Source of the DNA: Candidatus Latescibacterota bacterium
GTDB lineage: Bacteria; Latescibacterota; UBA2968
Assembly (NCBI GenBank): GCA_965198115.1
Contig: OZ240241.1
Span: 7,104,001 to 7,168,000 of the forward strand
Direction: 5' to 3'
Length of the DNA: 64,000 nucleotides
The translations under genes and the position numbers were made by a program. Positions within the stretch are counted from its first letter, which is position 1, and each line of letters starts with the position of its first letter. Below the pieces are notes generated by a model, which saw nothing but the letters and a program-made list of their open reading frames with translations, searched no databases and was not told where the DNA came from. Below, piece by piece: positions 7,973-54,065 of the stretch.

Positions 7973-8069
7973 GCATTCCTGTCTTGGCGCCTTCGGGTCG
8001 CGGAAGGACAAACTCGACTCTCAATGAGCTGGGTGAGACCGGCGGATTCCGCTCTCATCGGTGCTCGCC

Positions 8070-9995: not shown

Positions 9996-10015
9996 AGAGT
10001 TGTCTCCTTCTCCAG

Positions 10016-11471: not shown

Positions 11472-11492
11472 TTTGCGCCCGTTTTCAGGAGA

Positions 11493-12749
11493 TCACTCCC
11501 GGATGGCTTCGAGAGGCCGATCCCGGACCCCAAGGAATCGACGAAAGTCTGTGTTCACCGACATGCCTGCCGCAAAGATGGCGGCACTCGCGCCACACAC
11601 CGGGTAGATCAATCCGACGTCGTTGTCGACCCAGTCTCCCATAACCCCCGTGACCGCAATGGCGACCGGCGACAAAGCGTTTGATGCTGTCCCCATGAGG
11701 CCGAAGATCCGCCCCCTGATGGCTGACGGGATCGAACGCTGCAACTCGGTGGTCAGGGTGAGGCTGACCATCCCGCCCATCGCCCCCAGAACGGTCAGAC
11801 CGCACAGAGCGGGCAAGGCTCCGCCAACGGTCACTAGAAGACCCATCCCCGTGGCTTGCAGAAACAGCAGGAGAAGGACGACGTTCGCCCTTGCCCCTTC
11901 CGGGACGAACTTCGCACCGGCCACCACATAGCCCACTGTCGCACCCAGACCGTTCGCCGTAACCAAGAATCCATACCACTCGGCCCCCAGTCCCAGGAAG
12001 TCCTCGACGTAAAATGGCAGAAGCATCACAATCGGCCAGACGAAGAAGTTCAGGGAAAGGGCGACGACGATGACTGCTTTCAGACATTTGTCCTCGCGGA
12101 TCATCCTGACACCCTCAAGGCCTTCTCGCCAGAAAACCCGTAGGCGGTCGGACCAACCCTCGAGGCCGTCAGGGAGGGTCTGCTTCGTGCGGATCATCAT
12201 TGCACTCAAGGCAGAGTAGACGTAGCTGATGGCGTTAAGTGCGAAGAGAGTCGTTGCGCCGAGAACACTGAACACGACGCCACCAACGCTCTGACCGGCT
12301 GACTTCGCAACGAACGAAGAGCCCTGATTAAACCCATTGGCTTTTTCGAGACTTTCGTCGGAGACCAGATCCGGCACGATTGCGGCCGTCGCCGCCCCGT
12401 AGAATGCGCCCACGACTGAAATGATGAGTGAGGTAGCGAGCCCCGCGACAATGACCACGTTCCCGGAATCCCCCTGCATGGAAACGATGCCGACGAGCAT
12501 CAGTACGGCAAGAGCTTTGGCCAGATCACCTATCACGATCGTTCGCTTTCGCGAATATCGATCGGCGACGATCCCGCCCAGTGGGCCCAGGATTAGTGAG
12601 GGTAAAGCCGACGACATCATGAACAGCCCCACGATCGTACTGGATTCCGTCGTGTGCTTCGCCCAGAGCACCAGGGCAATCGTGAAAGCATTCGACCCAA
12701 GCCGGCTAATGAATCGACCCTGGAGCAACAGCAGGAAATCACGACTCAT
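11493..12749 (-). CDS. MFS transporter (DHA3/macrolide-efflux-like)
   Basis: About 12 hydrophobic segments; GGIVADRYSRK motif A; IPSAIRGRIFG. Confidence 0.9.
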   Translation of the reverse strand: MSRDFLLLLQGRFISRLGSNAFTIALVLWAKHTTESSTIVGLFMMSSALPSLILGPLGGIVADRYSRKRTIVIGDLAKALAVLMLVGIVSMQGDSGNVVIVAGLATSLIISVVGAFYGAATAAIVPDLVSDESLEKANGFNQGSSFVAKSAGQSVGGVVFSVLGATTLFALNAISYVYSALSAMMIRTKQTLPDGLEGWSDRLRVFWREGLEGVRMIREDKCLKAVIVVALSLNFFVWPIVMLLPFYVEDFLGLGAEWYGFLVTANGLGATVGYVVAGAKFVPEGARANVVLLLLFLQATGMGLLVTVGGALPALCGLTVLGAMGGMVSLTLTTELQRSIPSAIRGRIFGLMGTASNALSPVAIAVTGVMGDWVDNDVGLIYPVCGASAAIFAAGMSVNTDFRRFLGVRDRPLEAIRE

Positions 12750-13615
12750 TGGATCTCGCGACGTGGATCATAAGTCGCCAGCCATGCCAAGACTTCCCTG
12801 CTGTTCTTGTCCACATCCTCGATGTAGCTATCGCTGACACCCGACTTTTCCAAAAACGCATCGAACTCAGTCTTCAGCGCGTCTCTGTCGGACCGGATGC
12901 AGGCCACAACACAACCAAGAAGTGTCCGCTGGACCTCCTGCCCCTTTGGCGAATCGCCCAAACCTCGAATGAGTGTTGCGGACATGCCCGACTCCTGTGT
13001 CACTGTCCGCCAGAAACCCAGGTTGAACAGCTTAAAATTGGCGGTGGCGAACTCGTCAAGAACCGATGGGGCGACGGAGAGCGACCGATAGAGCATTGAA
13101 ACCGAACGGAATACGGTGTGTGGAACCAACTGCAGAAAGCACATGAGCTCGTCGTGGCGGGACAAGCTCTCGAGCATTCGGATCTTCATGCCCGTGTAAA
13201 GACGCCTCGCGAACGCAACGGCTTGTTCGGAGTTGGACCCAATGGGAATAAGTAGGACGTTTTCGTAGTCCCAGGATTGTGGTTGGCAAAGCGGGTTCGA
13301 CGAGCAGACACTCGCACCTGACTCATCCAGATCTGTCAGGTAACCCTCGAGCGGTGCTTTTACGGAGCTGTTTTCCACGATGATCAGAGAACTGGTACGT
13401 TCGTGCCTCAGGACTTCCGCGTAGACGGCGTCAAGAGCTTCTTCCGGGAAGACGCTTATGTAAAGGGCGTCATATACCTCGAGAAGGTCGTTCAACGAGG
13501 CCGAGTTATGACACTCGGGGTCGCTGATCATAATTGAGTCCCCTTGATGCTCGAGGAGACGGCGAACTACGGATCCAATAGCCCCACTCCCCCCCACGAT
13601 CCCTACTCTTGCCAT
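12746..13615 (-). CDS. Prephenate-dehydrogenase-like oxidoreductase (PapC/CmlC-like by context)
   Basis: N-terminal GIVGGSGAIG Rossmann motif, ENSSVK, HDELMCFLQLVPH (TyrA-type HD..M...Q..PH); co-operonic with the ADC synthase-mutase fusion. Confidence 0.75.
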   Translation of the reverse strand: MARVGIVGGSGAIGSVVRRLLEHQGDSIMISDPECHNSASLNDLLEVYDALYISVFPEEALDAVYAEVLRHERTSSLIIVENSSVKAPLEGYLTDLDESGASVCSSNPLCQPQSWDYENVLLIPIGSNSEQAVAFARRLYTGMKIRMLESLSRHDELMCFLQLVPHTVFRSVSMLYRSLSVAPSVLDEFATANFKLFNLGFWRTVTQESGMSATLIRGLGDSPKGQEVQRTLLGCVVACIRSDRDALKTEFDAFLEKSGVSDSYIEDVDKNSREVLAWLATYDPRREIQ

Positions 13616-13878
13616 TCGCAAAACCCCCAACACACGCCCGGGTCAAATTCGAATCACGTGCTGTCCGTCGTCTCGCTCGACAAACTTGAGCTATGACTCG
13701 GCTCGTTGCAACGTTTGCATGTTATCAAAGCCTGCCGTTTGCCCAAACACACCCAATCTAGTTTCCAGTAAGTGCCTTACTATTCGCTCGCGGCGTTGCG
13801 TTGATCTGAAATCTGCTTATTCTAATTTCTGACAGGGGCATTCCACGCCAGCGTCCTTTCGGATGTTCGGCGAGGTAT

Positions 13879-15258
13879 GGAGGTCGAGTCAAGAGGTGTG
13901 TAAATAGATCAGGCGGCCAGCTTCTTCCCGGAGTCGATTGTGGTCATAGTTTGGTTGTGCTGTGCATAAACAACGTGTAACAGATGGGGTGCATTGAGTC
14001 GCCGGAAGCGTTTCTCGGCGACCATCAGTGTTCGCCAGATGAGAGCGCTTGCCGAGACGACCTTCTTGTAGCGTTTGGCGGCGTTGGTTCGTAACCGCAC
14101 GGATGCAAAGGGGCTCTCGACGATGTTGGTCGTTCTCAGGTGGCGCCAGTGTTCTTCTGGGAAATCGAAGAAGGTGAGCATCCTATCCCAATCCCGTTCG
14201 AGTGTTGCCACCGCCTTCGGGAACTCGTTGCGATATCGTGCGACGAACTGCTTGCGCAGCTTCTCCGCATCCTGACGCGTGCTGGCATAGGGAATCTGGA
14301 CGAGCAGTGCACGAGCTTGAGGCTGCTGACGTTTGTGGATCTGGTCCGGGACGTTGAGAATCTTGTGGTTCCAGCACCGCTGCTGACGGGTGTGCGGCCA
14401 GACCTGATCGACGGCAGACCAGATGCCCATATTGCCATCGGCCGCCATCAGAATGGGGTGATCCAAGCCGCGATCCCGTAGGTCTCTAAGGACAGCCAGC
14501 CAGGACTCGGTCGACTCGCGATACCCAGGCACCAGGCCCAGAACCTCTTTGCGGCCGTCACTCATGGCGCCGATCACGACAAGCAGACACGCCTTATCTT
14601 TCTCAAGTCCGGCTTTGACGTAGATCCCATCGGCCCAGGCATACACGAGCTCACGATCGTCCAGGCGTCGTTCCTGCCAGGTCTGGTAATCAACCTCCCA
14701 TTGACCGCGGAGGCGAGCAATCGACGAGGGGGAGAGCGGAGCCCCATCACCGAGAAGCCCTCGCAGGGCCAACTCGAAGTCGCCCTGAGACAGACCGTGG
14801 AGATAGAGCTCCGGGAGCAGTTCCCCCACCTCTCTCGTGCGCCGAGCGAACAACGGCAGAATCCTGCTCTCGAAGCGCTCCTCCAAACCGCGAACACGGG
14901 GCCGCTTGATCTGGATCGTGCCGCAAGAGGTCGACAATCGCCGCAGCTTCCCATAGCCGTTGCGATAACCGGATCCTGCATCTACGGCTTCTTTGCGCTC
15001 ATACCACCCGCGTCCGAGGAACTGGGTCACTTCCTCCTCAACGATGGACTGAATGCGAACCTCGATTTCCTTACGCAACCACCCCTCAAGGGTTTCCCAC
15101 GTCGGCATGGACAACGAGGGGGACTTCGACTTATGTTTTCCCACGGCGATCCTCCTTCCCACCGGGCCTGTGAACCCGGTATTTCGTGGATATTGTTATC
15201 TCACGGGAAGTGTAGGGTCGCCTTTTCTATTTTTCCACACCTATTGATTGTAGCTCTC
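13879..15258 (-). mobile_element. IS256-family insertion sequence
   Basis: Imperfect terminal inverted repeats (TCAAGAGGTGTGTAAA at about 13889-13904 vs TCAATAGGTGTGGAAA on the minus strand at about 15232-15247) around an intact transposase; truncates the Type III mod gene. Confidence 0.85.
13909..15162 (-). CDS. IS256-family transposase
   Basis: YRNGY, LYLHGLS, WADGIY, QRCWNHK, LRTTNIVES; 417 aa. Confidence 0.93.
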   Translation of the reverse strand: MGRRIAVGKHKSKSPSLSMPTWETLEGWLRKEIEVRIQSIVEEEVTQFLGRGWYERKEAVDAGSGYRNGYGKLRRLSTSCGTIQIKRPRVRGLEERFESRILPLFARRTREVGELLPELYLHGLSQGDFELALRGLLGDGAPLSPSSIARLRGQWEVDYQTWQERRLDDRELVYAWADGIYVKAGLEKDKACLLVVIGAMSDGRKEVLGLVPGYRESTESWLAVLRDLRDRGLDHPILMAADGNMGIWSAVDQVWPHTRQQRCWNHKILNVPDQIHKRQQPQARALLVQIPYASTRQDAEKLRKQFVARYRNEFPKAVATLERDWDRMLTFFDFPEEHWRHLRTTNIVESPFASVRLRTNAAKRYKKVVSASALIWRTLMVAEKRFRRLNAPHLLHVVYAQHNQTMTTIDSGKKLAA

Positions 15259-16021
15259 TCCAAAAATCTCATCCATCAATGCCCGAACGCGATGGACGTT
15301 TTCATCACCAATCTGCATGAAGATAGAAGCAGTGTCGGCAAGGAGATCGCGGGCAACTGTTAGGCGGTCTCGAAGATACGTGAGGTAGCTGTGGATACCA
15401 TAACGCCAAGTATCGCGGAAGGCTTTGACCTGCTCCGGTTCTCGGGTGATGTGGTCAACCCGACCGTCTTTCACATCCCGACTAGTGGTCGACCACTGAA
15501 AGTTGCTGTTGAACTTGATCCCGTACGGTGGGTCAACGAAGATACACTGTACCTTTCCCCGCAACCCTTCACGTTCCGCAAGGCTTGCCATAACCTGTAA
15601 CGAATCACCCAGGATCATGCGGTTGGACCAGTTCTGGTCGTGCTGGTAGAACTCGGTTCTGTCAACTCCCTTGGGAATACCGTTGAAGTCGGCGAAGAGG
15701 TTGGCCTGTGCTCCGGGGGGTCTCCGCTTGTGTTTCTTCCGTCTGCCGAAGGAGATCGTCGATCAACACCTTCGGATGAACCTTTTCCTGGATGTAGAGC
15801 GGCGGGGCGTGGACGACGAGGTCGCTCCAGTCCTGCTCATCCTTCCCACGCCAGACGAACTGGGGGTCGAGATCGGTGTTCCGTGGATACTTCACCGGCC
15901 GTGGCTCGGTATCGTCTGGTCGGAGCACGGACTGATGCTCGGCGGAGGGGATGTTCCTCCGCTTGGCCTCGTCGTGCGTGATCGTTTCGACGGTCTTGCG
16001 AGTGCCGCGCCTCTTGGCCAT
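15259..16021 (-). pseudogene. Type III R-M adenine methyltransferase (Mod), frameshifted and 3'-truncated by IS256
   Basis: ORFs 15662-16021 and 15241-15618: [49 protein letters not shown]. Confidence 0.88.
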
Positions 16022-16024
16022 AGC

Positions 16025-18712
16025 CTAGCTGTCCTCAGTCACCGAATGTGCGGTCGCGGTGTCGATTATCTTGTCGAACTTGTCTCCGACCTTCGCCGCA
16101 AAGTCGGTCTCGATCTCGTAGACCTCGGTGAACTCGGCGAAGGCCCAGTGTCCATACGTCTTGAGATTATTCACGCCGTGTACCCAGTAGGTATCCATCG
16201 TGGACTTCTTTCCCTTCGCGTCCTCGCGCCGGTAGCCCTTGATCTCGACGATCAGGCGCAGCAGGTCGTCCGAGCCGTGGCCGTCGTCCACCAAGACGAT
16301 GAAGTCAGGCAGATACTTTCGAACATCGGAGCCGTAGCGATACGGCACTTCGAGACCCAAGTTGTGGTTCTTCGTGTAGGCCACGACCTTCGGATGCGAC
16401 TCGGCGACACGGCAGAACTCGGCTTCCCAGTCGCTGTCGAGCACCACCCAGTTGACGTGGTTCTTGGGCGCTGGACCACTGGTGTCCCAGCGGTCCGCGC
16501 GGGACGTGTTGAATCTGACGTGGGCCGTGGAGCCGGTGGGATTGTAGGGGTCGAGCAGGGCTTTGATGGGGCGGTGGTCTTCCAGCGCGTTGGTGATGCC
16601 GGCGGTGATGCGGGTGCACGCCATATCGGCCAGCTCCTGATACATCAGCTGGGCAGGATAAGTGCCGCCCTTGCAGACGAGACAGGTGTCGAGCCACTGC
16701 TTCGTGATGCGTTTGAGCTGGCCGAACAGATAGAGCTTCGGCTCTTCCCCCGGATCGCGCCATTTCGTGTAGAGCAGGCGCTGGGTGACGTGGAACAGCA
16801 GCGTGGACGGCCGCATGTCTCCTAGATGCTCCAGGTTCAGGTCCACGCCTTCGCCGATGATGCCCGCATTCCGTGTAATGGACGGGCCAACCAGATCGGG
16901 GCTGAGTTCGAGAATGGAATCGGCACTGAAGGTGGCCGTGAGGCGCTCCTCGGGCAGTTCGACGCGGTAGCCTTCGACGCGAGGGAACTGGATTTCGAGG
17001 GCGTCTCGCTCCGGGCGCATGGCTTTGACCTGAACCGTCTCACGCGGCGGCTGCGGCGGGGCGATAACGGGCTTGGCCGTGAAGTCGAAGGGAATGCCGA
17101 AGATGTCTGCGTATTCGACGTTGAAGAGATTTTCGTCATTGAGGTCGTAGGATTGGCGGCGCAGCGCACGTCCGATAACCTGTTCGCAGAGGAGCTGGGT
17201 GCCAAAAGCGCGGATGCCGAGGACGTGGGTGACGGTGTTCGCATCCCAGCCTTCCGTCAGCATGGACACGGAGACGACACAGCGGATGGAGCCGCCGAGT
17301 TGTCCGTGCTTGCCCACGGTGTTCGTGACCTCACGCAGCAACTCCTGATCGCTGATGTTCTCCCCGGCACGGGCATCCCCGGTGCGTTCGATGATCTCGC
17401 GGCGGAAACGTGCAATCTCGTCGGCGGCCATGCCACGAAACTTGTCGTCGAGGGCGTCGCCGGCTTCTAGCTGCTCACTGTCGATCAGCAACGTGTTCGG
17501 ACGAGCGAGCGGATTCCCCGTGGTTTCGTCGAAATTGCGGAAGAGTGCCAGGCGACCGTTTTCCAGTGCGGTGGTCCCGTCGGCGTTCTTGCGTTGAAAA
17601 CCGGAGATGAAATCATAGACGAGCTTCGAGATGGCGGTGTTCTGGCAGACGATGATGAAGCAGGGTGGCACACGAATGCCCCCTGTCTTCCACAGCTTGA
17701 AGGTCTTCTCGTAATGCCCGTAGAGCGCCTCAAGAGCGGTTTGCAGTCGGGGAGGCAGTTTGAGGGGATCAAGCTCTCCGCCCTGGCCGCGCCCCTTCTT
17801 GGGCATCTCCTTGCGGATATTCTCCCAGAGGTTGCGATAAACGGGCATTTCGTCGCCGGGGATGTTCTGAGCCACCGGGACGCGCGGCAGTTTCACGATG
17901 CCGCACTCGATGGCGTCCATCAGCGAGAAGTCGCTCATCGTCCACGGGAAGAGCGTTCCCTCGGCATAGCCGGATCCGCGCAGGAAGAAGGGCGTGGCGG
18001 ACAGATCGATCACACGAGAGCGGCCGAGCTTACGATTCACGGCTTCGAGACCCGAGATCCAGAGGCGCCGCTTCGTTGTTCTTTTCGGCCAATTTTTTGT
18101 CATCGCCCTTCAGATGCGCATCGTCCGGCTCCGGTGGCTTCTCGCGGTAGCAATGGTGCGCCTCGTCGTTGAGCACGAGGATGTTCTTGATACCCATCAG
18201 ATCAGGCATGACACGCTGGAGCATCTGCCCTTCAGTTTCAGTGGTGTTCAGCTCGTCGCCGGTGCGGCCCTTGAGCAACGCGCGTCCGCCGGCAGACAGC
18301 TCGATGCGCTCGCGTAACTTGAAGGCGTGGTAGTTGGTGATGACGATCTTGGCGCGGTTCACGTCGTCGAGCAGGTCGTGCGGCACGAGTTCGCGGCTGG
18401 CGTAGTAGCTGTCCGGGTCGTTCGGCTGGAGGACGCGGAGCCGATTCTTGATGGTCAGGCCTGGAGCGACGACCAGGAAGCCTCGGGTGAAGTGTTTGCT
18501 GGCGGGATGGCGGACCGCGTTGACCGTTTGCCAGGCGATCAGCATGGCCATGACAGTTGTCTTGCCAGCCCCGGTGGCCAGTTTCAGCGCAAGGCGCATC
18601 AATTCGGGATTGGCGTCCTTGTTGGCTCTGGCCAAGTGGTCGAGCAATCGTTTGCCGCCCTTGAAGTGCGGCGCGACCTCGGTCAGCCAAATCGCGCTCT
18701 CGACGGCTTCTA
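16025..18712 (-). pseudogene. Type III restriction endonuclease/helicase (Res), 5'-truncated, one frameshift near 18060
   Basis: LATGAGKT, LNDEAHHCY, DLSATPF, MLTEGWD, EQVIGRALRR, C-terminal YLPDF..VEIKG nuclease; ORFs 18030-18647 and 16025-18103. Confidence 0.88.
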
Positions 18713-37057: not shown

Positions 37058-38477
37058 GGCTCTATCCGGGTTTCTCAACGGTGAAACTATAGAATGACAA
37101 GGTCATAGATCGTTCCCTACGCTTGGTTGTGTGTGTAGGACAATCAAAGCGAAGGGGGTGCGACCTATGACCGGGAGCAGATTACTATCGAAACTGCTGA
37201 GATTCAAGGGGTTCCGTGTTGTCAGCTGGTGGTTTGAGGGGAGAAGCTGTTTCGTCATCGCCGTAAAGCCACATAAGAATGGTTGTTGTTGTCCGGAGTG
37301 CGGCTGTCGAGGTAAAATCGTCCGCACAATGCCCCATCCGCGTCGGTGGCGTGACATTCCGGTGTGCGGGTGGAGGGTCTGGCTTCTCTACCATCCTCGG
37401 GAGATTCGGTGTCCTACCCACGGTCGTGTGGTCGAGGAGATTCCGTGGGCGGAGCGGTTCTCTCGGGTGACGTATCGCTTCGAGTATGCCATGCTGCGCT
37501 ACTGCCAGACCATGACGCAGAAGGCGGCGTCCGAGTTGCTGCGCATCTCTGCCTCGACGCTGTCGGATCTCCTTCACCGATCCATCACGCGGCTTCGTGA
37601 AGGTCATCGTATCCGAGGGCTCAAAACCATCGGGATCGACGAGATCTCCTACGCCAAGCGTCACAGGTACGCCACGCTCGTTTACGATCTGGACCGCTCC
37701 TGCGTGGTGTGGGTTGGCCGCGGCAGGGCGCGTAAAACGATCGATCGGTTCTTCACAGAGGCTCTCAGTCCCTACCGGAGATCCAAGATCGAGTGGGCCT
37801 GCTGCGACATGAGCGAAGCTTACATCGGAGCCATCCAGGAACACTGTCCGAATGCCAAGCTGGTCCTCGATCGCTTTCACATCGTCAAGGCTCTCAATGC
37901 CGCCGTTGACGAGGTCCGTAAGGACCAGTGGCGTAAAGCTGCCCCGGATGAGCGCAAAGCTATGAAGGGCCTCCGATGGCTCCTCTACCGGCACTCAGCG
38001 ACACGCTCCAGAGGGGATACTCGGACACTCAAAGCACTGGAGAAGGCGAACTACCGAATCTATAGAGCCTGGAGACTCAAGGACGAGTTCGAGCAGTTCT
38101 GGGAATACAAAGCGCCCTGGGCTGCCGAACGCTTCCTGAAATGCTGGACGACGTCCGCACTCAGAAGTCGACTTGAACCCCTGCGAAAGTTCGTCAGGAC
38201 CCTGCGACAGCACTTCTTCGGCGTCCTCGCATTCGTGAACACGCGTCTTACCAACGCCATCGCCGAAGGCCTCAACCGAATCGTCCAAATCGTCAAGAAC
38301 CGAGCCAGCGGATTCCGCACACTCGACGCATTCAACGATATGATCTTCCTTACCGTCGGAGACATAAACATCCCTGAGCAGATTCCGAAGAGGTTCCGCA
38401 CACTCTAACCGCGCCCCCATGCCAGGAACCACGGCACCTTCACCCACTTCATCTCGTTGAGAGATCCGGATATAGCC
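37058..38477 (+). mobile_element. ISL3-family element, copy 1
   Basis: IRs GGCTCTATCCGGGTTTCTCAACG / CGTTGAGAGATCCGGATATAGCC; direct repeat TAAAAAT on both flanks. Confidence 0.93.
37131..38408 (+). CDS. ISL3-family transposase
   Basis: CPECG zinc finger, IGIDE, CCDMS, DRFHIV, TNAIAEGLN. Confidence 0.94.
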   Translation: MCRTIKAKGVRPMTGSRLLSKLLRFKGFRVVSWWFEGRSCFVIAVKPHKNGCCCPECGCRGKIVRTMPHPRRWRDIPVCGWRVWLLYHPREIRCPTHGRVVEEIPWAERFSRVTYRFEYAMLRYCQTMTQKAASELLRISASTLSDLLHRSITRLREGHRIRGLKTIGIDEISYAKRHRYATLVYDLDRSCVVWVGRGRARKTIDRFFTEALSPYRRSKIEWACCDMSEAYIGAIQEHCPNAKLVLDRFHIVKALNAAVDEVRKDQWRKAAPDERKAMKGLRWLLYRHSATRSRGDTRTLKALEKANYRIYRAWRLKDEFEQFWEYKAPWAAERFLKCWTTSALRSRLEPLRKFVRTLRQHFFGVLAFVNTRLTNAIAEGLNRIVQIVKNRASGFRTLDAFNDMIFLTVGDINIPEQIPKRFRTL

Positions 38478-43350: not shown

Positions 43351-43615
43351 GCGGACGATCGCAGAAAACCCGACTTCAAGTCGGATCAAAAAAGATCGGG
43401 CTTTTTAGATCGAGTTTCTCTATGCGAAGGAAGCAAAAGTTATTCGGAAGGCTTCAAAGAAGCGCTCCAGGCCAGATTGGTCACTGCATTCTGGGAGGTC
43501 AAATGGTCAGCCGAAGTTGGCTAGCGGTCCCCTCGATTGGTTTCACTGTTGCCGAAGGACTTCAAGCCCACCTCAACTCCCAGCTTCGTACGCAAGACAA
43601 AGCTCGGACACAACC

Positions 43616-46600
43616 GTGACGTACCTACACGCAATCCAGCGTCGTTACTATTGCGAAGACCTCGTACGCCTCCGTCGCGCCGACGACCGTCGGCGTCATG
43701 CCGCGTCTCAGCGTCGGGGTCGCATTGACCCGAACCCGCACCAGATCGATGCGGTGATGTTTGCGTTGCGCCGGATCCCCGAGGGTGGGTGCATCCTTGC
43801 CGACGAGGTCGGCCTCGGCAAGACTATCGAAGCCGGCTTGGTTATCGCGCAGCTTCTGGCCGAAGGTGCGATCCGCGTCCTGATCATCGTACCGCGCCCC
43901 CTACTGGGTCAATGGCAGAGCGAGCTTTACACCCTCTTTGGCATTGAGGCAATCGAGGCTGATACGGCCCCCAATGTGGAAGGTGCAGGCGTGTTCATTG
44001 CCGGCCGCGAGTATGCGGGCGGTAACCGAGGTTTCGCGCACCTAAGCACTACGCCTCCGTTCGATCTTTGCCTTATTGACGAAGCGCACGAGGTATTCGC
44101 CGGCATCTACAGGCGTTTCGACCGCTACGGGGCATACGAAGAGGATAGCCGTCACGCGAACACGGCCCATCGTGTAAGAAAAGTGATCGGAGCCTCGCCG
44201 GTCCTACTGCTGACTGCGACGCCAATACAGAACTCGTTAGCGGAGCTATGGGGGTTGGTGCAATACGTCGATCCGACCGGCACGCTACTGGGTTCAAGAT
44301 CGACATTCGAAGAACTTTTTTGCGAGGATAGCAATGGACGCAGTGTCGTCAGTGAGCAAGCAGTTGAGCTGCGTCGCCGATTGTCTAGCGTAGTGCAAAG
44401 GACGCTACGACGACAGGCACAGGAGTTCCTTGATAGGCCGTTCGTCGGCCGCCGTGCCCAGCTTTTCGAATACGGAATGAGTCCTGAAGAGCGTGCCCTC
44501 TATGATGACGTGACGGACTACCTTTTACGGCCTCAGCTGTGTGCGTTTCGGGGTCGGTCACGTCAGCTCTTGCTGCTGGGGTTCCATCGCCGCATGGCCT
44601 CATCTACGGCGGCACTTGCGCAGAGCCTTGAGCGTATTGCCGTACGGCTACGCCGAATGTTGCAGGGAGAATCTGAGACTGTCGCCAACGAGGAGGGCGA
44701 GGCGTTTCTGAGAGATCTCGAAGAAGAAGGAACACCCGAACAAACTGGAGATGCCCAGGCCGAATGGGTCGAGGTTCCGGGCGACGGATCCCCGCCGGAT
44801 CCAGGCGCCATACAGGCGGAGATCGACCTTGTGGAGACGTTCGTGCGCCGTGCGCGGTCCCTTCCCCACGATAGCAAGGCTGAAAGCCTAATTAGGGCCG
44901 TGCGCCTAGTTACCTCCCGTGATGAGGATCGACAAAAAGTCGTCATCTTCACGGAGTCACTCACAACACAAGATTACCTACGCAAACTGCTGGTCGAACA
45001 GGCCCGACTGCAAGACGAGGACATTACCCTTTTCCGCGGCACCAACGAATCACCCCGTGACATGCAAGCACTCTCCCAGTGGCGTGATGAGGTCGAGCGG
45101 GAGATTGCGCCTCATATGCGCCCCAGCTCTGACATCGCTGTCAGACTCGCCCTGGTCCACGAATTCCGTACTCGCACGAAAGTGATGATCTCTTCCGAAG
45201 CCGGCGCTAAGGGACTGAACCTACAATTCTGTGACACCCTGATTAATTACGATCTGCCCTGGAATCCACAGCGAATCGAGCAACGGATTGGACGTTGCCA
45301 CCGATATGGTCAGAGGCGAGATGTTACAGTTATCAACTTCCTCGCAAAAGACAATGAAGCGCAGCGTCTCACATTCGAAATCCTCAGCACCAAGCTCGAT
45401 CTGTTCGGGCAGGTGCTTGACAGCTCAGACGTAGTACTGCAAACGCCCCGCTCGGACTCTTCGGCGAGCTTGGCTTCGGCCCTTGGTCCCAACTTCGAAT
45501 CCGAACTTCGTCGGATTTGGGACCGAGCTCGTTCAGTGCAGGAGGTGGAAGAGGAGCTTCGGCAGCTACGCGACACAATGGAAGACCGCCGAATGGAGCT
45601 TGAACGGGTTCGCGAGCGGACCAATGGGCTGATCGAAACCGGTTTCGACGACTCCGTCAAAGACGTGTTCCGGAATATCCAATCCGAACTCCCGTCAACG
45701 CTTGCCGAACTTGACGGAGATCTCGAACGTGTTTTGACCGGGTATCTCGATGCGGTTGGCGTGTCCTGGGGGGTTGCGGACCGAGACGGGAAACGCATTG
45801 TCCACGTTGGTGCGTCGGCTCAATTTCCGGGTATGATGGCGGACGGCGGGTCGGTCACCCTCGGGCCAGCCCACGACCTAACTGACAATGAGTCGCTCCA
45901 CCCCTCGCACCCATTGATCGAAGCATCCGTGGCAGAAGCACGCGAAACGGGCGCAGGCACGTTCCACGTTCGGTTCCTGCTCAGCAACGATGCACCAGAG
46001 GCCCTGCGCAACCGCCGGGGAGACCGGGGACGGCTCGCATTGACTAAGGTGATGAGCCGTGGTTTCGAGCGGGAGGACCGGCTGATTGTAACGGTTATTT
46101 TCGAAAATGAGGAAGTGCTGCGTCCAGCAGAAGCGGCAGCCGAGTTACTAAAGCAGAGGTGCGAAGACGTCGACGAAATGACTCCGCCAGTAACTATCAG
46201 TCCGATCCACCTGGACGAGGTGGTGGACGAGGAGGTCTTTATAGATCAGTCAGCTGCTGGCGATGCTGAGCAGGAGACCTTCTGCAGAGCAATAGATCAG
46301 CTCGACCAGTACGTCGCCGACAGGGTTTTGGTTCTCAAACGAACACGCGAGAAACATCGCCGACGGTTAGTCGAGGCCGAACAACGCCGAGACGGAGCGC
46401 TTGGCCCGGATCGACGTGAGCGAGAGCAGATGCAAGTCAACTCAATTGAGCGTGTCCTGGATGATCTTGACTTACAAATAGACGCTTTGGAGTCACACCA
46501 GGACGTCGATTACGAGCGCTGGAAAGCTCACACTCTTGCTCGGAGATATACGCCTACACAGATTGAGCGTCTGTTACAGGCGGAGTTTTGCATTGAGTGA
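43616..46600 (+). CDS. SNF2-family helicase/ATPase with extended C-terminal region
   Basis: PHQ, LADEVGLGKT, IDEAH, LTATP, VIFTE, GLNLQ, YDLPWNP.RIEQRIGRCHRYGQ; GTG start at 43616. Confidence 0.93.
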   Translation: MTYLHAIQRRYYCEDLVRLRRADDRRRHAASQRRGRIDPNPHQIDAVMFALRRIPEGGCILADEVGLGKTIEAGLVIAQLLAEGAIRVLIIVPRPLLGQWQSELYTLFGIEAIEADTAPNVEGAGVFIAGREYAGGNRGFAHLSTTPPFDLCLIDEAHEVFAGIYRRFDRYGAYEEDSRHANTAHRVRKVIGASPVLLLTATPIQNSLAELWGLVQYVDPTGTLLGSRSTFEELFCEDSNGRSVVSEQAVELRRRLSSVVQRTLRRQAQEFLDRPFVGRRAQLFEYGMSPEERALYDDVTDYLLRPQLCAFRGRSRQLLLLGFHRRMASSTAALAQSLERIAVRLRRMLQGESETVANEEGEAFLRDLEEEGTPEQTGDAQAEWVEVPGDGSPPDPGAIQAEIDLVETFVRRARSLPHDSKAESLIRAVRLVTSRDEDRQKVVIFTESLTTQDYLRKLLVEQARLQDEDITLFRGTNESPRDMQALSQWRDEVEREIAPHMRPSSDIAVRLALVHEFRTRTKVMISSEAGAKGLNLQFCDTLINYDLPWNPQRIEQRIGRCHRYGQRRDVTVINFLAKDNEAQRLTFEILSTKLDLFGQVLDSSDVVLQTPRSDSSASLASALGPNFESELRRIWDRARSVQEVEEELRQLRDTMEDRRMELERVRERTNGLIETGFDDSVKDVFRNIQSELPSTLAELDGDLERVLTGYLDAVGVSWGVADRDGKRIVHVGASAQFPGMMADGGSVTLGPAHDLTDNESLHPSHPLIEASVAEARETGAGTFHVRFLLSNDAPEALRNRRGDRGRLALTKVMSRGFEREDRLIVTVIFENEEVLRPAEAAAELLKQRCEDVDEMTPPVTISPIHLDEVVDEEVFIDQSAAGDAEQETFCRAIDQLDQYVADRVLVLKRTREKHRRRLVEAEQRRDGALGPDRREREQMQVNSIERVLDDLDLQIDALESHQDVDYERWKAHTLARRYTPTQIERLLQAEFCIE

Positions 46601-46646
46601 CTGTTCAGACCAAGAGCAGCTGGACCGACAACTACAGGACAGCGAA

Positions 46647-47780
46647 ATGGCATTGACAGTTCTACACACTGCGGACTGGCATCTCGGGCGACGCTTCCCG
46701 TCGTTTCGGCCGGAACAAGAATTGCGTCTTACGCGGGCACGGCTAGAAGTTGTTGGACGCATCCTCGATCTCGCGCACAGCCGTAACGTCGATGCAGTTT
46801 TGGCTGCAGGAGACCTGTTCGATGAATCCTCACCACCCAAAGAATGGTGGGGCGGTCTCTTGAAGGAATTCCAGCGACGCGACTGGGCTCGCCCGGTAGT
46901 ACTACTCCCCGGTAACCACGACCCCCTGATGGCGCGCTCTGTTTACCACCCAGACCACCCATTCCGTGCTGGGCTGCCAGAATACGTTCACGTCGTTGAC
47001 GAAGAAGGCTTTACACTCGAGCTCGATGATCGTGCAGTCGTCATCGCGAACCCTTGCCGATCACACGCCGGACAAACCGACATTGCATCATCCCTGCCAG
47101 ACCGCGAACCCAACGAGAGCCGTTTCAGAATCGGACTTGTCCATGGACAGACCTTCGACATCGAGGGCTATCAAACCAACTTTCCCATCGCTAGCGGTAT
47201 CGCCGCAGAGCGAGGTCTCGATTACCTCGCAATCGGTGACACGCATGCCTTTCGGGATGTTGAGCCAGAGGCTACTGCCCCTACGATCTATCCTGGTGCG
47301 CCTGAGGCAACAAATTTCGGAGAGAACGAAACTGGCTCCGTGGCAATCGTATTCTTCCCGCTTGATCGGGCGCGGAGACCGATAGTTCGGCGGGAGCAAG
47401 TCGGAACTTGGGAATGGCGAGAAGTAATCTGCAGATCGATGTCGGATCTTCGTTCGCTCGCTGGGGCTAGCGACCTACGCAAGACAGTACTTCGACTTAA
47501 GCTCGAAATGGTGGTTCCGATGGAAGAATACGACGAGGCGGAACGCATCTTGATCGAGCTCCGCGGTTCCCTCGCTGCTAATCCACGGGTAGGGGTCCTG
47601 TCCGAGGATCGCAACGGGTTACATCTCGCCACGGACACGCCCATCGAGTTCGGTAAAGAGCTGCCAGCGGTACTTCAATCGACGATCTCGCGTCTGCAGG
47701 ATAGAAGCGAATCTAATCCTAAGGTAGCTGAACGAGCTCTGCATCATCTGTACCGCCTAGTCAAGGAAGCAGCGAGTTAA
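46647..47780 (+). CDS. Mre11/SbcD-like metallophosphoesterase nuclease
   Basis: HTADWHLG, AGDLFD, PGNHD, VHG, YLAIGDTH, YPGAPE; alternative TTG start at 46593 overlaps the SNF2 stop. Confidence 0.92.
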   Translation: MALTVLHTADWHLGRRFPSFRPEQELRLTRARLEVVGRILDLAHSRNVDAVLAAGDLFDESSPPKEWWGGLLKEFQRRDWARPVVLLPGNHDPLMARSVYHPDHPFRAGLPEYVHVVDEEGFTLELDDRAVVIANPCRSHAGQTDIASSLPDREPNESRFRIGLVHGQTFDIEGYQTNFPIASGIAAERGLDYLAIGDTHAFRDVEPEATAPTIYPGAPEATNFGENETGSVAIVFFPLDRARRPIVRREQVGTWEWREVICRSMSDLRSLAGASDLRKTVLRLKLEMVVPMEEYDEAERILIELRGSLAANPRVGVLSEDRNGLHLATDTPIEFGKELPAVLQSTISRLQDRSESNPKVAERALHHLYRLVKEAAS

Positions 47781-50700
47781 TGGCAATGTGGATCCAGAAA
47801 ATCGAAGTCACTGATCTTGCTGGTATAGCCAGCGCGAGCATCGACCTCGGGCCGGGCTTGAACATCCTCCACGGGCCAAACGAGATCGGTAAGTCGAACA
47901 TCGTGAAGGCGGTGCGTGCCTCACTGCTTCTGCCAGCGGGTTCAGTCGCAGCTGAATCGCTCCTCGATTGGAACACTGATGCGACGCCAAAGGTGTCTCT
48001 AACCTTTGAACAGGAGCCTCAACGCATTTGGCGCGTCCGGAAGAGCTATGGCAGCGGCCGCGATGCCTGGAGTTACCTCGAATTTTCCCGAGACGGACAC
48101 GACTTCACACAGGACAAAAGGGGCCGGGAGGTCGACGGTGCCCTTCAGGAAATTCTTAGGTGGGGAGTAGAGACACCTGGGGGTCGGGGTCGACGCAGAC
48201 GAGGTCTTCCAGAATCGTTCATAACCAAAGTCTTGATAGCCGATCAGAGCGACGTGGTAGCCATACTTAAGAAGAGCCTATCAGACGACGATGACGAATC
48301 AGGTCGACAGCGACTGACTGAGGCATTGCAGGCGATGGCCGAGGATCCGTTATTCAAGAGAATCATGTCGTCGGCTCAAGAGAAGGTAGACGAGGCGTTT
48401 ACCGGCACAGGTCGCCACAGATCTGGACGCGGGTCTCCTTGGGTCCGCGTACGAGACAAGCTTCAGGCCGCCCAACGACGAGAATCGGAGTTGAGGAGTC
48501 AACTTGAGGAAAGCGAAGGAACGCGACAGCGGGTCGATGAGCTACACCAGGAGCGGCTAACGGCACAAGCGCAAGAAGATAAGTGCAAGCAGGAACTGGA
48601 AGTCGCCGTCCGAGACATCGAGCGCAAGCGTGACCGCGAAGCCGCTATCGATGCACTCTCGGATGCCGAGAAGGAAATGGCTCGTATAGAGTCAGCTATG
48701 GGGGAATGCGAAACCAATGCGGCGGCCGTCGAGACAGCCCGTACCGAATTTACAGAAGCAGTGGAAGAGAGAGCTGAATCAGAGGGTGAGTTGTCCCAGT
48801 TGAAATCGAGCGTGGAAGAGGAGCGGATGCGAGTCTCTGAAATCGAGAGCGACGAGGCAGAGCAAAAGCGACGAATACGCGAGCAGGACGCACAGAACTC
48901 GCTCTTGCGGCTGGATGCAGAACATCAAGAATGTGAGAAGGCACGTCTTCAGGCAGAACGCGTCAAGGAATTAGCTGAGACGGCCGCCGTGCTAAGGGAG
49001 GAGATCGAATCGGAGGAAAAGATATCGGAGGAGACGAAGAAGCTGATCGAACAGACACAAGGCGTCCTCGATGCGGACAAGAAGGAGCTACAAGAATTCG
49101 ATCTGCAGCTAAGGTTCTGCAGATGGTCGGTCTCTGGTAAAAGGGTCGGATCCCTCAGAGGTCAATTCGAAGAATCGGCTGATAGCCACAAACGAGCTGA
49201 CGAGTTCTTGGCGAAAGCAGAGCGGAACCGAGACCAGGCTGACGCTGTGAGTACACCTGATGAGGACGATGTTGCAAAGCTGCGCAACATCGAGGCTGAT
49301 CTACGGGTGGCACAAGAAAGGTTGGCTGTCGGCCTCCTTGTATCGATGACACCTGAGAAGGATCTCCAAGTAAGCATAGAGATCGACGGTGAGTCTGTCG
49401 ACCATCGTCTAGTTGCAAGTGATACAACCGAGTTTGAGGCCGCCCGAGAGCTGCGCGTTGACATACCAGGATTCGGCGAGCTTCGTGTAATGGGGGGTAA
49501 CAAGGCCCTGGCTCGGGAAGTGCAGGAGGCGGAGGATCGGTGGGAGAAGGCCTGGGAGCCTATCATTGTGTCCACGGGTTGCCGAACGATCCCCGATCTC
49601 GAGATGCTCTTGCAGAGATGCAGAGAGCAGCTCTCAGAGGCGCAGGCTTTTGAACAGGAAGCCGCAATGTTGCAGGTCAAAGCAGGAAGCGTGGACGATC
49701 TCGAGCGCCAGGTTACCCTTGCCGAGGAGGAGGAGGCTCGGGCCAAAGATGATCTTGCCGTCGGGATTAAGGAATCGATCATCGATGGGCGTAGCCATCT
49801 GACTGCGGACGAGTACGTGGATAGCCTCAGGGAGAATCCCCCAGACATACGAAACGTTGAGGAAGCGATTGAAACTGTCGAGTCAAAGGTGAGCGAGCAG
49901 GAGCTGCTGTGCCATAAACTCGATTCAGGAATGTCTGGAAAGCGCGCCCGGCTTGAAGCTCAGCGTGAAGAACTCAACGAGAGAGAGAAGGAACTCGACC
50001 GTGAGAAGGGCAAGTTGAGTGGCGAGTGGCAGACCATACTGAGGTCATCCACCGAGGATCTTGAAAGAATCCAGAGAGACCGCATTAAAATCGACGATGA
50101 CCTCAAAGCAATCAACAAGGAAGCTGCCACTGATGTCGAGGAGGCACGTTCGTCGCTAGCAGCAGCTAAAGAGGAAATGACGAAAGCGGAGAAGGCCCTA
50201 TCGGAGGCCAATGAGGAGATCGACCGATGCCGAAGTGAACTTGCGCGACTCGAGGGCGAACTCACCATCCAGCGCAAGGCAGTCGAAACCGAAGATCACG
50301 AAGGTGCGAAGTCCCTTACCGACGAATGTGCGGCTCGCCTGGATTCCCTTCCGGAACCAGAAAACGAAGAGGTCGATGACGCCCTCCGGGTTAAGATGGA
50401 GGAGACCGCCGCACGAGCGTCGCGAAAGACCCAGGAACTCGAGAACGAACTCCGGCGTGTTGAGGGAGCTCTCGAACAGATCGGTGGAAGCTACATTGAG
50501 GAACAGGTGAATCAATCGCAAGAGGCGATCGAGGCCGTAAGACAGCAAGAGCTTGACCTCGAACTCGAATTCGGTGCTTGGCAACTATTGCGGGAGACAT
50601 TGGCTGAGGCCGAGCAGCAGGATTCGGTGCATTTGGGCAACGCTCTCGTTGAACCAGTCAGCGCACGAATGAGCACGCTGACTGGCGGGCGTTACGGGGA

Positions 50701-51034
50701 CATTGCGATCGGACCTCAGATGGACGCAACTGGCATCCACCTCGCAGGAAGCGAGCGTCAATTCGATAGCCTATCAGTCGGGACGCAAGAACAGGTCGCG
50801 CTTATGCTTCGGCTCTCAATTGCCGAAGCACTTGGAACCTTCCTAATCCTCGACGACCAGGCCACCCAGTCCGATCCTCAGCGGATGGAATGGATCCGGG
50901 ATGTGCTCGAGAGAGCTGCAGAAGAGATTCAGGTGGTGGTCATGACGTGTCATCAGGAAGATTATGTGGGTGAAGGACTACCTGTAGACTCACACGTTGT
51001 GGACCTGGCTGACTGTGTGGAGCGGACACCGTAG
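47780..51034 (+). CDS. Rad50/SbcC-like (YhaN-type) coiled-coil ABC ATPase
   Basis: Walker A GPNEIGKS, long coiled coils with a central beta-rich insert, signature LSVGTQEQ, Walker B LILDD, H-loop MTCH; TAATG overlap with the nuclease. Confidence 0.92.
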   Translation: MAMWIQKIEVTDLAGIASASIDLGPGLNILHGPNEIGKSNIVKAVRASLLLPAGSVAAESLLDWNTDATPKVSLTFEQEPQRIWRVRKSYGSGRDAWSYLEFSRDGHDFTQDKRGREVDGALQEILRWGVETPGGRGRRRRGLPESFITKVLIADQSDVVAILKKSLSDDDDESGRQRLTEALQAMAEDPLFKRIMSSAQEKVDEAFTGTGRHRSGRGSPWVRVRDKLQAAQRRESELRSQLEESEGTRQRVDELHQERLTAQAQEDKCKQELEVAVRDIERKRDREAAIDALSDAEKEMARIESAMGECETNAAAVETARTEFTEAVEERAESEGELSQLKSSVEEERMRVSEIESDEAEQKRRIREQDAQNSLLRLDAEHQECEKARLQAERVKELAETAAVLREEIESEEKISEETKKLIEQTQGVLDADKKELQEFDLQLRFCRWSVSGKRVGSLRGQFEESADSHKRADEFLAKAERNRDQADAVSTPDEDDVAKLRNIEADLRVAQERLAVGLLVSMTPEKDLQVSIEIDGESVDHRLVASDTTEFEAARELRVDIPGFGELRVMGGNKALAREVQEAEDRWEKAWEPIIVSTGCRTIPDLEMLLQRCREQLSEAQAFEQEAAMLQVKAGSVDDLERQVTLAEEEEARAKDDLAVGIKESIIDGRSHLTADEYVDSLRENPPDIRNVEEAIETVESKVSEQELLCHKLDSGMSGKRARLEAQREELNEREKELDREKGKLSGEWQTILRSSTEDLERIQRDRIKIDDDLKAINKEAATDVEEARSSLAAAKEEMTKAEKALSEANEEIDRCRSELARLEGELTIQRKAVETEDHEGAKSLTDECAARLDSLPEPENEEVDDALRVKMEETAARASRKTQELENELRRVEGALEQIGGSYIEEQVNQSQEAIEAVRQQELDLELEFGAWQLLRETLAEAEQQDSVHLGNALVEPVSARMSTLTGGRYGDIAIGPQMDATGIHLAGSERQFDSLSVGTQEQVALMLRLSIAEALGTFLILDDQATQSDPQRMEWIRDVLERAAEEIQVVVMTCHQEDYVGEGLPVDSHVVDLADCVERTP

Positions 51035-51068
51035 TGCAGAACGGTAGGCCCTGCCATAACTACCCCGT

Positions 51069-51113
51069 GGTAAGCCCCCGGCTCTGCCGGGGAGACTCCC
51101 AGAGTTTGACAGT
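51069..51113. mobile_element. Hairpin resembling an IS200/IS605 end (no transposase); may double as terminator
   Basis: GTAAGCCCCCGG-CTCTG-CCGGGGAGACTCCCAGAGTTTGACAGTT. Confidence 0.5.
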
Positions 51114-51849: not shown

Positions 51850-53269
51850 GGCTATATCCGGATCTCTCAACGAGATGAAGTGGGTGAAGGTGCCGTGGTT
51901 CCTGGCATGGGGGCGCGGTTAGCGTGTGCGGAACCTCTTCGGAATCTGCTCAGGGATGTTTATGTCTCCGACGGTAAGGAAGATCATATCGTTGAATGCG
52001 TCGAGTGTGCGGAATCCGCTGGCTCGGTTCTTGACGATTTGGACGATTCGGTTGAGGCCTTCGGCGATGGCGTTGGTAAGACGCGTGTTCACGAATGCGA
52101 GGACGCCGAAGAAGTGCTGTCGCAGGGTCCTGACGAACTTTCGCAGGGGTTCACGTCGACTTCTGAGTGCGGACGTCGTCCAGCATTTCAGGAAGCGTTC
52201 GGCAGCCCAGGGCGCTTTGTATTCCCAGAACTGCTCGAACTCGTCCTTGAGTCTCCAGGCTCTATAGATTCGGTAGTTCGCCTTCTCCAGTGCTTTGAGT
52301 GTCCGAGTATCCCCTCTGGAGCGTGTCGCTGAGTGCCGGTAGAGGAGCCATCGGAGGCCCTTCATGGCTTTGCGCTCATCCGGGGCAGCTTTACGCCACT
52401 GGTCCTTACGGACCTCGTCAACGGCGGCATTGAGAGCCTTGACGATGTGAAAGCGATCGAGGACCAGCTTGGCATTCGGACAGTGTTCCTGGATGGCTCC
52501 GATGTAAGCTTCGCTCATGTCGCAGCAGGCCCACTCGATCTTGGATCTCTGGTAGGGACTGAGAGCCTCTGTGAAGAACCGATCGATCGTTTTACGCGCC
52601 CTGCCGCGGCCAACCCACACCACGCAGGAGCGGTCCAGATCGTAAACGAGCGTGGCGTACCTGTGACGCTTGGCGTAGGAGATCTCGTCGATCCCGATGG
52701 TTTTGAGCCCTCGGATACGATGACCTTCACGAAGCCGCGTGATGGATCGGTGAAGGAGATCCGACAGCGTCGAGGCAGAGATGCGCAGTAACTCGGACGC
52801 CGCCTTCTGCGTCATGGTCTGGCAGTAGCGCAGCATGGCATACTCGAAGCGATACGTCACCCGAGAGAACCGCTCCGCCCACGGAATCTCCTCGACCACA
52901 CGACCGTGGGTAGGACACCGAATCTCCCGAGGATGGTAGAGAAGCCAGACCCTCCACCCGCACACCGGAATGTCACGCCACCGACGCGGATGGGGCATTG
53001 TGCGGACGATTTTACCTCGACGGCCGCACTCCGGACAACAACAACCATTCTTATGTGGCTTTACGGCGATGACGAAACAGCTTCTCCCCTCAAACCACCA
53101 GCTGACAACACGGAACCCCTTGAATCTCAGCAGTTTCGATAGTAATCTGCTCCCGGTCATAGGTCGCACCCCCTTCGCTTTGATTGTCCTACACACACAA
53201 CCAAGCGTAGGGAACGATCTATGACCTTGTCATTCTATAGTTTCACCGTTGAGAAACCCGGATAGAGCC
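51850..53269 (-). mobile_element. ISL3-family element, copy 2 (near-identical, inverted)
   Basis: Same IRs as copy 1; 8-bp direct repeat AAAAAATA at 51842-51849 and 53270-53277. Confidence 0.93.
51919..53196 (-). CDS. ISL3-family transposase
   Basis: 425 aa, differs from copy 1 at only a few residues. Confidence 0.94.
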   Translation of the reverse strand: MCRTIKAKGVRPMTGSRLLSKLLRFKGFRVVSWWFEGRSCFVIAVKPHKNGCCCPECGRRGKIVRTMPHPRRWRDIPVCGWRVWLLYHPREIRCPTHGRVVEEIPWAERFSRVTYRFEYAMLRYCQTMTQKAASELLRISASTLSDLLHRSITRLREGHRIRGLKTIGIDEISYAKRHRYATLVYDLDRSCVVWVGRGRARKTIDRFFTEALSPYQRSKIEWACCDMSEAYIGAIQEHCPNAKLVLDRFHIVKALNAAVDEVRKDQWRKAAPDERKAMKGLRWLLYRHSATRSRGDTRTLKALEKANYRIYRAWRLKDEFEQFWEYKAPWAAERFLKCWTTSALRSRREPLRKFVRTLRQHFFGVLAFVNTRLTNAIAEGLNRIVQIVKNRASGFRTLDAFNDMIFLTVGDINIPEQIPKRFRTR

Positions 53270-54065
53270 AAAAAATATCGGACGTGAATCAGCGAGTGTC
53301 CGCACAAGTGCATCGGATGCTGATGAAGCCCGAGAAAATCCTGGCGATCTGGCAGGAACAGTTCGATTCAGAAGGCGGAGAAGCGATGGCGCAGCGACTC
53401 GAAAGTCTGAAAAAGAAGAGGGACGGTCTTGCAGGACATGTTGAGCGAGCGGATTTTGCGTACGTATCTGGAACGCTGACGGGAAGCCGGTATCAAAAGC
53501 AAGTGGACAGGATCCAAGCAGAAGGCGTGCACCTGGATCAAGAGATTCATCAGATAACTGCCAAGCTGGATGCGCGCGAGGGGGCCGACGCACTTAAGGA
53601 TGGTCTCGCCCACGCGCTGACGTTTGCGGGCGATGGAATCCTCTCGCTAGTCGATGTCGACGATACGGTTCCATCTTTTCTCGTAAAGAATAGAAGCTAC
53701 TCAGAGGATCAGCTTAAGCAGTTTCGAATGCGCAAGGCCATCATCCACGCCTGTGTCGAGCGGATTCATCTACATCCGGGGGGTGAGATGGTCTTGGATT
53801 ACCGGGTGAATCCACGTAAACTCTCGGCAGCCTTTCTCTCTGTCGATGGGTTTGAACATCCAACTGGTACCAGACACCAAGACACCAAGAGAAGCGCGGA
53901 GGACGGGAGACAGTGGACGTCTCCAGAGCCAAGGCGACCAGTGGCCCGTAGAGGGTTGACGGTTGACAGTAGACGGAGACGGCTTCGCCTTTGTGGATAT
54001 TGACAATGAGGACAGTGACTGCGGCTTCGTCTGTTTGTGGTTCCTTAAGACTGTTTGAGGTTTGA

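Follow-up and report, generated by a model that had tools for sequence, protein, structure and literature searches.

A conserved mobile cassette of an SNF2 ATPase, an Mre11-type nuclease and a hookless Rad50-like ATPase: an apparently unnamed three-gene unit with a possible role in defence

In this work, we analysed a stretch of 64,000 nucleotides (referred to here as the window) from Candidatus Latescibacterota bacterium (contig OZ240241.1, positions 7,104,001 to 7,168,000), whose genome is a single contig of 8.43 Mb with a G+C content of 59.1%. Positions 43616-51034 of the window carry a cassette of three plus-strand open reading frames (ORFs) without internal stops over 7.4 kb (G+C 55-57%), which encode an SNF2/Swi2 ATPase (43616-46600), a metallophosphoesterase nuclease of the Mre11/SbcD type (46647-47780, counted from its ATG) and a Rad50/SbcC-like coiled-coil ABC ATPase without a CxxC hook (47780-51034). 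We found that the trio is a fixed, co-selected unit of three intact genes, and that this unit is accessory and has moved horizontally, crossing between phyla as just these three genes. It is apparently an unnamed three-gene mobile cassette. As to its function, we lean slightly towards an end-sensing nuclease machine directed against phages and plasmids.

The conservation of the unit was examined from both of its ends. When GTDB genomes were scanned with an alignment of the ATPase, 181 relatives were confirmed, and 80 of these loci were examined (71 close ATPases, one of them at a contig edge, which left 70 with upstream sequence, and nine distant ones); a scan of metagenomes with the SNF2 returned at least 592 loci, 80 of which were examined. 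SNF2 and nuclease genes were located upstream of the ATPase, in the same order, at 67 of the 70 close loci; the other three (L006, L007 and L057 in our numbering) were orphan full-length ATPases with neither gene upstream. These 67 trio loci were distributed over seven phyla (34 in Pseudomonadota, 27 in Acidobacteriota, two in Planctomycetota and one in each of four more), and the nine distant loci consisted of nuclease and ATPase without SNF2. From the SNF2 side, 13 metagenome proteins were 46-60% identical, and both the nuclease and the ATPase followed in all 11 cases with room downstream; after the more distant metagenome SNF2s neither gene was found (0/67). The conserved three-gene synteny asked about in the original prediction was thus recovered in both searches. 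The tree distances of the three genes were correlated (rho 0.94-0.96, 63 loci), and the ratio of nonsynonymous to synonymous substitution rates was 0.06-0.48 in 17 pairs. A fourth conserved gene or a methyltransferase was ruled out, as no neighbour family occurred at more than 10 of the 80 loci.

As a separate observation, a distant nuclease-ATPase pair (L176, NZ_CP053224.2, 138331-159403) was located on a conjugative Sphingobium plasmid, among genes for WYL, a TM0106 nuclease, two helicases, an N-6 methylase and HNH; the SNF2-like gene of this locus falls outside the cassette SNF2 clade.

The cassette was rare. No SNF2 of the cassette clade was detected in 30 genomes of the same family and 30 further relatives, where the two best other proteins scored below 500 bits against 1700, and of the other genomes in two carrier lineages, the nuclease profile matched 5 of 120 in one and 5 of 100 in the second. 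A DNA identity of 91% over 7.4 kb was shared by two loci from Acidobacteriota and one from Alphaproteobacteria, reaching from the beginning of the SNF2 gene to the stop of the ATPase gene, with the likeness ending at the gene limits. Between 9 and 10 phylum changes were needed on each gene tree. The surroundings varied as well: 58 loci had 48 distinct neighbour families upstream, and 56 loci had 43 downstream. Of the 59 assessable copies, 5 were broken.

We also noticed a second copy of the cassette in the same genome, present as two 99.9%-identical fragments (contig positions 379625-378282 and 5000384-4998656) that correspond to 45207-46550 and 46543-48271 of the window. The two have the 8-base junction GAGATATA in common, and both border on the same 1.39-kb insertion sequence (IS). 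This copy is a duplicate that insertion and rearrangement have broken apart, and the read depth of one sequencing run dropped stepwise where the duplicated part ends. Elsewhere in this genome, a stand-alone intact nuclease ORF lies beside a truncated ATPase. Another genome (G061) likewise contained two copies, 0.6 Mb apart on one contig (L008 and L038), of which one was intact and the other had a broken SNF2 among toxin-antitoxin (TA) and AbiE genes.

The SNF2 gene is the first and founding gene of the cassette. In the SNF2 tree (every second sequence, 73 rows, FastTree, with long outgroup branches flagged), the cassette proteins formed one clade (SH-like support 99) beside a sister clade (98), to which they are 30-36% identical. 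At 46 of 69 sister-clade loci (L094-L160, L166) the SNF2 gene was followed by one methyltransferase family; all four methyltransferases checked were type III Mod and the next genes were type III Res, a widespread arrangement for which our literature search found no description. Given these restriction genes behind the sister SNF2s, the motor of the cassette most likely derives, by phylogeny, from a restriction-linked lineage. The clade itself is small, with 18 representatives at the 50% identity level scoring above 1000 bits, and the cluster names of 10 SNF2 representatives included no cultured organism.

The original prediction of three intact, tightly linked plus-strand genes was borne out by stop-free ORFs of 994 (from a GTG start), 377 and 1084 amino acids, and the proposed overlap of the nuclease stop with the ATPase start, TAATG at 47778-47782, was read directly in the sequence. 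The other overlap, at 46593-46600, stood in part. An in-frame TTG does overlap the SNF2 stop, and since such an in-frame overlapping start occurs at 60 of the 76 loci that could be assessed (with that of the window counted), translational coupling of the nuclease to SNF2 is plausible; the nuclease may nevertheless start either at this TTG (46593) or at the ATG at 46647. A contig piece of 7,641 bases from another study's run covered 43472-51097 with 55 substitutions and no indels within the genes. The contig of a further run had three indels of 1 or 2 bases as well as an insertion of 3 bases, and is possibly a broken strain copy or an error. An assembly artefact was ruled out, as independent contigs span the genes. 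A promoter and terminator scan remained at chance level, with no plus-strand candidate. No RNA run was among the sequencing runs listed for the cassette, which says nothing about its expression.

The SNF2 protein matched Pfam SNF2-rel_dom and Helicase_C. Its best family models were DrmD_b (414 bits, cut-off 950) and DrmD (215 bits, cut-off 610), with 412 bits against the PADLOC DrmD model and 136 bits against the RapA equivalog model (cut-off 576). Its Walker A motif GLGKT (residues 66-70, 43811-43825) was nearly invariant among 32 homologues; as it begins already at residue 66, an N-terminal Tudor region is lacking. Further motifs were DEAH155 and QRIGR556. The AlphaFold2 model had a mean predicted local distance difference test score (pLDDT) of 79.7 and a predicted template modelling score (pTM) of 0.75.

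The nuclease matched Pfam Metallophos, no PADLOC model, and, at 65.3 bits, fell under the cut-off of 77.65 of the sbcD model TIGR00619; all 20 of its PDB sequence matches were Mre11/SbcD-type proteins. Its motifs were DWH10, GDLF55, GNHD89 (motif III, residues 89-92, 46911-46922), H166 and GDTH197 (motif V, residues 197-200, 47235-47246). In the last of these, the position of the first His in GHxH is taken by an Asp, as the alignment with GHIH of PDB entry 4o24 confirmed. This substitution had been picked out in the original prediction, but it is not special to the trio: the SNF2-less relatives have GDWH, so that GDTH as a trio-specific novelty was ruled out.

For the ATPase, library scans gave only weak matches to Rad50/SMC families. 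Its AlphaFold2 model (pLDDT 79, pTM 0.39) showed a split head and long coils, and matched SMC and Rad50 structures in Foldseek. The Walker A motif GPNEIGKS (residues 32-39, 47873-47896) was conserved as GPNE[LI]GKS in 63 of 63 homologues, and the signature LSVG998 was present. The Walker B motif FLILDD (residues 1021-1026, 50840-50857) has an Asp at the usual position of the catalytic Glu of ABC ATPases, and the seven commonest variants, which account for 57 of the 63 homologues, read hhhhDD(Q/H) instead of DE. The claim that all catalytic motifs are intact therefore needs qualifying as regards the Walker B of the ATPase. The absence of a zinc hook was confirmed (CxxC in 0/63 homologues), and a seven-strand β-domain was modelled at the apex of the coiled coil (residues 519-571, 49334-49492), where it is predicted to stand in for the hook. 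However, the apex region aligned by profile with the same region of the SNF2-less relatives, and because these have it too, the β-apex is a mark of a wider family and was ruled out as a novelty of the trio. An ESM Atlas search with the apex returned unnamed clusters at 0.93-0.94, and MksF/DUF3584 below 0.8, the latter as leads only. A hookless Rad50-like architecture is not new, since SbcE of Bacillus subtilis, a repair protein, likewise lacks CxxC and contains a central domain (PMC2811018; this and the other PMC articles are cited here from excerpts). At one locus (L060:7187-12727) the cassette ATPase had 1846 residues, in comparison to about 850-1200 elsewhere, with greatly lengthened coils.

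By analogy with these relatives, we infer all biochemical steps of the following mechanism. The nuclease and the ATPase would assemble in the manner of Mre11-Rad50 (two plus two) and clamp on a DNA end, with the coils closing at the β-apex in place of the zinc hook, and the DD Walker B would slow ATP hydrolysis and make it switch-like. The SNF2 motor, of RapA/DrmD type, would translocate on double-stranded DNA and either strip protective proteins or polymerases bound at the end or push the nuclease further into the molecule. In a last step, the nuclease would cleave and degrade linear DNA of phages or plasmids, or the ends that a restriction enzyme has produced, and the circular host chromosome, having few free ends, would be largely ignored. 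Recognition is likely to be by free, hairpin or protein-capped DNA ends and not by sequence or methylation; recognition by DNA structure fits a unit without a methyltransferase. The restriction-linked sister SNF2s and DrmD as the best model point to a defence ancestry. Besides, repair appears to be already covered, as a separate canonical sbcD is encoded elsewhere in this genome (143.4 bits, over the cut-off), which confirms the separate housekeeping nuclease asked about in the original prediction, and carriers have RecB/AddA-like genes: RecB scored over the cut-off in two of five carriers, and the other three had long AddA/RecB-like helicases below it. The cassette as a substitute for RecBCD/AddAB was ruled out for the same reason.

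The defence neighbourhood was tallied at 58 of the 67 trio loci (the other nine, which had at most one neighbour gene, were left out), with labels assigned by hand from Pfam and each neighbour cluster represented by a single member (217 in all); 26 of 30 pre-chosen windows from nine carrier genomes served as controls, and the loci are mutually dependent. Within 2.6 kb, a defence gene was present at 15 of 58 loci, a defence or TA gene at 23 and any such gene including mobile ones at 26. Some copies adjoined Pfam families typical of McrBC, OLD-TOPRIM/UvrD, Sir2-HerA, BrxA and restriction-modification (R-M) systems, for example McrBC and OLD-TOPRIM at L037, Sir2-HerA at L036 and BrxA at L069. The commonest neighbour families over the 80 loci were housekeeping ones. 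No defence or TA neighbour occurred at the nine loci of SNF2-less relatives (0/9, p = 0.02 in comparison to the cassette loci).

Several findings weigh against the end-sensing defence reading. No defence, TA or mobile gene was found within 2.6 kb at 32 of 58 loci. The proportion of loci with defence or TA genes, 23/58, did not differ significantly from that of control windows (6/26, p = 0.21), and neither did the count by gene (41/261 against 10/123, p = 0.052). Enrichment near defence genes, to be expected under the original prediction, was only about twofold over the same-genome background and not significant, so that it is weak and unproven, and a strong enrichment was ruled out. A search of IMG/VR with a single ATPase sequence gave three candidates, none of them confirmed, and no close viral copy; among 331 PLSDB plasmid records obtained with the nuclease, the best were about 27-34% identical and none was a close copy. 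About ten Acidobacteriota copies (Thermoanaerobaculia/Multivorans-type) occupied one stable site after gltX; apart from this site in one Acidobacteriota clade, vertical inheritance, the outcome set against defence in the original prediction, was not observed. Canonical sbcD was over the cut-off in only one of five other carriers and missing in the remaining four. The top five Foldseek matches of the SNF2 model were all whole-length matches to E. coli RapA, a recycler of RNA polymerase. Finally, SbcEF, which is the nearest hookless pair to have been characterised, serves repair: SbcE acts together with SbcF in break repair (PMC2811018). Thus, of the idea of a defence system made of an end-sensing nuclease and a double-stranded DNA translocase, the conserved mobile unit and the lack of a named counterpart have stood, whereas the defence role itself stays a proposal.

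Some of these findings favour a rival, in which the cassette is an accessory module for the repair of breaks blocked by proteins; we consider it rather unlikely, and it survives better than the others. Here, the RapA-like SNF2 would clear away RNA polymerase that has stalled or proteins that are trapped, after which the blocked or hairpin end would be trimmed for recombination by the SbcEF-like pair. The mobility would reflect a benefit that is patchy among genomes rich in IS; about 250 ISL3-like copies occur in the present one. The RapA fold match, which extended to the RNA polymerase-bound form (template modelling score 0.50), the SbcE and SbcF precedent, the missing sbcD, the housekeeping synteny of the SNF2-less relatives and the purely housekeeping neighbours of more than half of the cassette loci are all in agreement with repair. 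On the other hand, the scarcity of the cassette (no more than about 5% of related genomes), the recent cross-phylum transfer, the ties of the SNF2 sister clade to type III R-M and the RecB/AddA-like genes retained by carriers speak against it, and a RapA-like architecture is also found in BREX-related defence helicases (PMC12839542).

Alternatively, the cassette may be a restriction helper with little effect alone, in which SNF2 dislodges the enzyme from the cut end and the nuclease destroys the fragments. The type III Mod genes behind the sister SNF2s would fit this role, as would the HsdR remnant just upstream in the window and the methyltransferase genes inserted between nuclease and ATPase at three loci (L005:6063-9921, L009:5986-9917 and L026:8455-9921), with an NgoMIV-family nuclease gene in the L009 insert. 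Yet no R-M gene was constant, only 15 of 58 loci had a defence gene of any kind within 2.6 kb, and the transferred unit comprised the three genes only, which makes a helper improbable. Mre11-type nucleases depend on an ATPase partner, and the stand-alone nuclease ORF with its truncated ATPase persists in this genome, both of which argue against an abortive or addiction module. Such a module, in which the nuclease is restrained by ATPase and SNF2 until phage DNA ends or partner loss lead to cutting of the host chromosome, is very improbable, even though an SNF2 mutation makes ietHAS toxic (PMC13069673), Lamassu couples SbcCD-type sensing to cell death (PMC12663957) and our ATPase- and SNF2-centred search found ATPase orphans (3/70) and no clade nuclease orphan at the loci of other genomes.

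Returning to the end-sensing defence machine, it may represent a new immune class, in which an Mre11-Rad50-type machine with an SNF2 from type III restriction loci destroys linear invader DNA directly and strips the proteins that protect its ends, with no methylation mark and no cell suicide; we put this forward tentatively, with more doubt than confidence. Such a class, if real, would stand beside Lamassu as its 'detect-and-destroy' counterpart, and would parallel in bacteria the remodeller-assisted action of MRN on protein-bound ends. By retaining the Mre11 nuclease, dropping the zinc hook and adding a motor from a restriction locus, the cassette could show a second route from repair to immunity. 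A repair role, in turn, would make it a minimal model, in bacteria, of how an SNF2 enzyme clears proteins for Mre11-Rad50. Either outcome would provide the first partner-defined function for the large family of hookless, β-apex Rad50 proteins, and a compact 7.4-kb, three-gene unit that crosses phyla should be easy to clone and test.

In the window around the cassette, the broken neighbours listed in the original prediction were recovered in part. Pfam supported the HsdR C-terminal fragment just upstream (T1RH-like_C) and a Phd and PIN toxin-antitoxin pair, but the UvrD_C scrap (E 0.0015) was below the cut-off and the putative serine-recombinase relic at 53266-54003, which we take to be one by its look alone, had no Pfam support. 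Two ISL3 copies in opposite orientation (37131-38408 and 51919-53196) bracket the cassette region. On the minus strand, 13909-18103 contains an N6/N4 methyltransferase fragment interrupted by an IS256-family element, behind a gene of 692 amino acids with a weak restriction-endonuclease match, and is probably a broken R-M locus. A biosynthetic cluster at 490-13633, also on the minus strand, includes a ketosynthase fragment, a nonribosomal peptide synthetase module, Hsp90, GNAT and MFS genes, and a fused GATase/chorismate-binding/chorismate-mutase gene, presumably reminiscent of p-aminophenylalanine supply. Further away, 20 tRNA genes are arrayed in 2 kb at contig positions 2870558-2872531.

In comparison with known systems, neither PADLOC nor NCBIfam assigned the trio to a named defence system above the cut-off, as the original prediction had supposed, and the full-text literature, searched without supplements and without the ABC ATPase classification of Krishnan et al. 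2020 (NAR 48:10045), contained no description of it. The cassette resembles SbcCD/Mre11-Rad50 in its gene order, in which the metallophosphoesterase is immediately followed by the coiled-coil ABC ATPase, in nuclease motifs I-IV and in the fold of the head. It differs from them in the β-apex in place of the CxxC hook, the GDxH motif V, the DD Walker B, a nuclease below the sbcD cut-off, a near-obligatory SNF2 partner and its rare, mobile occurrence. Wadjet (JetABCD) combines a hinge SMC with a kleisin, a KITE protein and a TOPRIM nuclease; only coil-level JetC matches were obtained (E 3e-4 or worse), and the cassette has no conserved fourth gene. The SNF2-Mod-Res type III loci share with it a sister SNF2 that is likewise the first of a gene run, but Mod and Res come next there and a nuclease or ATPase at none of 67. 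RapA corresponds to the cassette SNF2 in its modelled whole-length fold; the top matches were N-terminally truncated RapA structures, in line with the missing Tudor region, by which, as by the low equivalog score, the two differ.

The link to DISARM class I consists in the DrmD models, which were the best for the cassette SNF2 and whose cut-offs lie far above its scores. No constant drmA, drmB, drmC or methyltransferase neighbour accompanied the cassette, and none was present in the window (for the make-up of DISARM, see PMC9142583). A DrmD-like SNF2 recruited into another defence module, and likened here by description, is IetH, which is needed for the anti-phage activity of ietHAS; in contrast to the cassette, its partners are a protease and an ATPase (PMC13069673). 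Lamassu (LmuABC) arose from SbcCD (PMC12663957), presumably by discarding the Mre11 nuclease. Its SbcC-derived ATPase is a proposed sensor of DNA ends, and the Walker B of LmuB is also altered (PMC12663957, PMC10586767), whereas the cassette has a whole Mre11-type nuclease in place of LmuA/LmuC, an ATPase of about 1080 amino acids and an additional SNF2; LmuB models matched its ATPase weakly, at about 28 bits and at the N-terminus only. SbcEF (YhaN/YhaO) of B. subtilis has a nuclease before a hookless SMC-like ATPase with coils of about 300 amino acids and a central domain, and the excerpt of its description mentions no SNF2 partner (PMC2811018). AAA_27 (PF13514) gave no match in the ATPase of the window and was precomputed on 5 of the 120 homologues listed. 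By the tests made, the cassette is no member of SbcCD, DISARM, Lamassu or Wadjet, and, judging from the sequences, it would be most akin in its working to Mre11-Rad50 and SbcEF.

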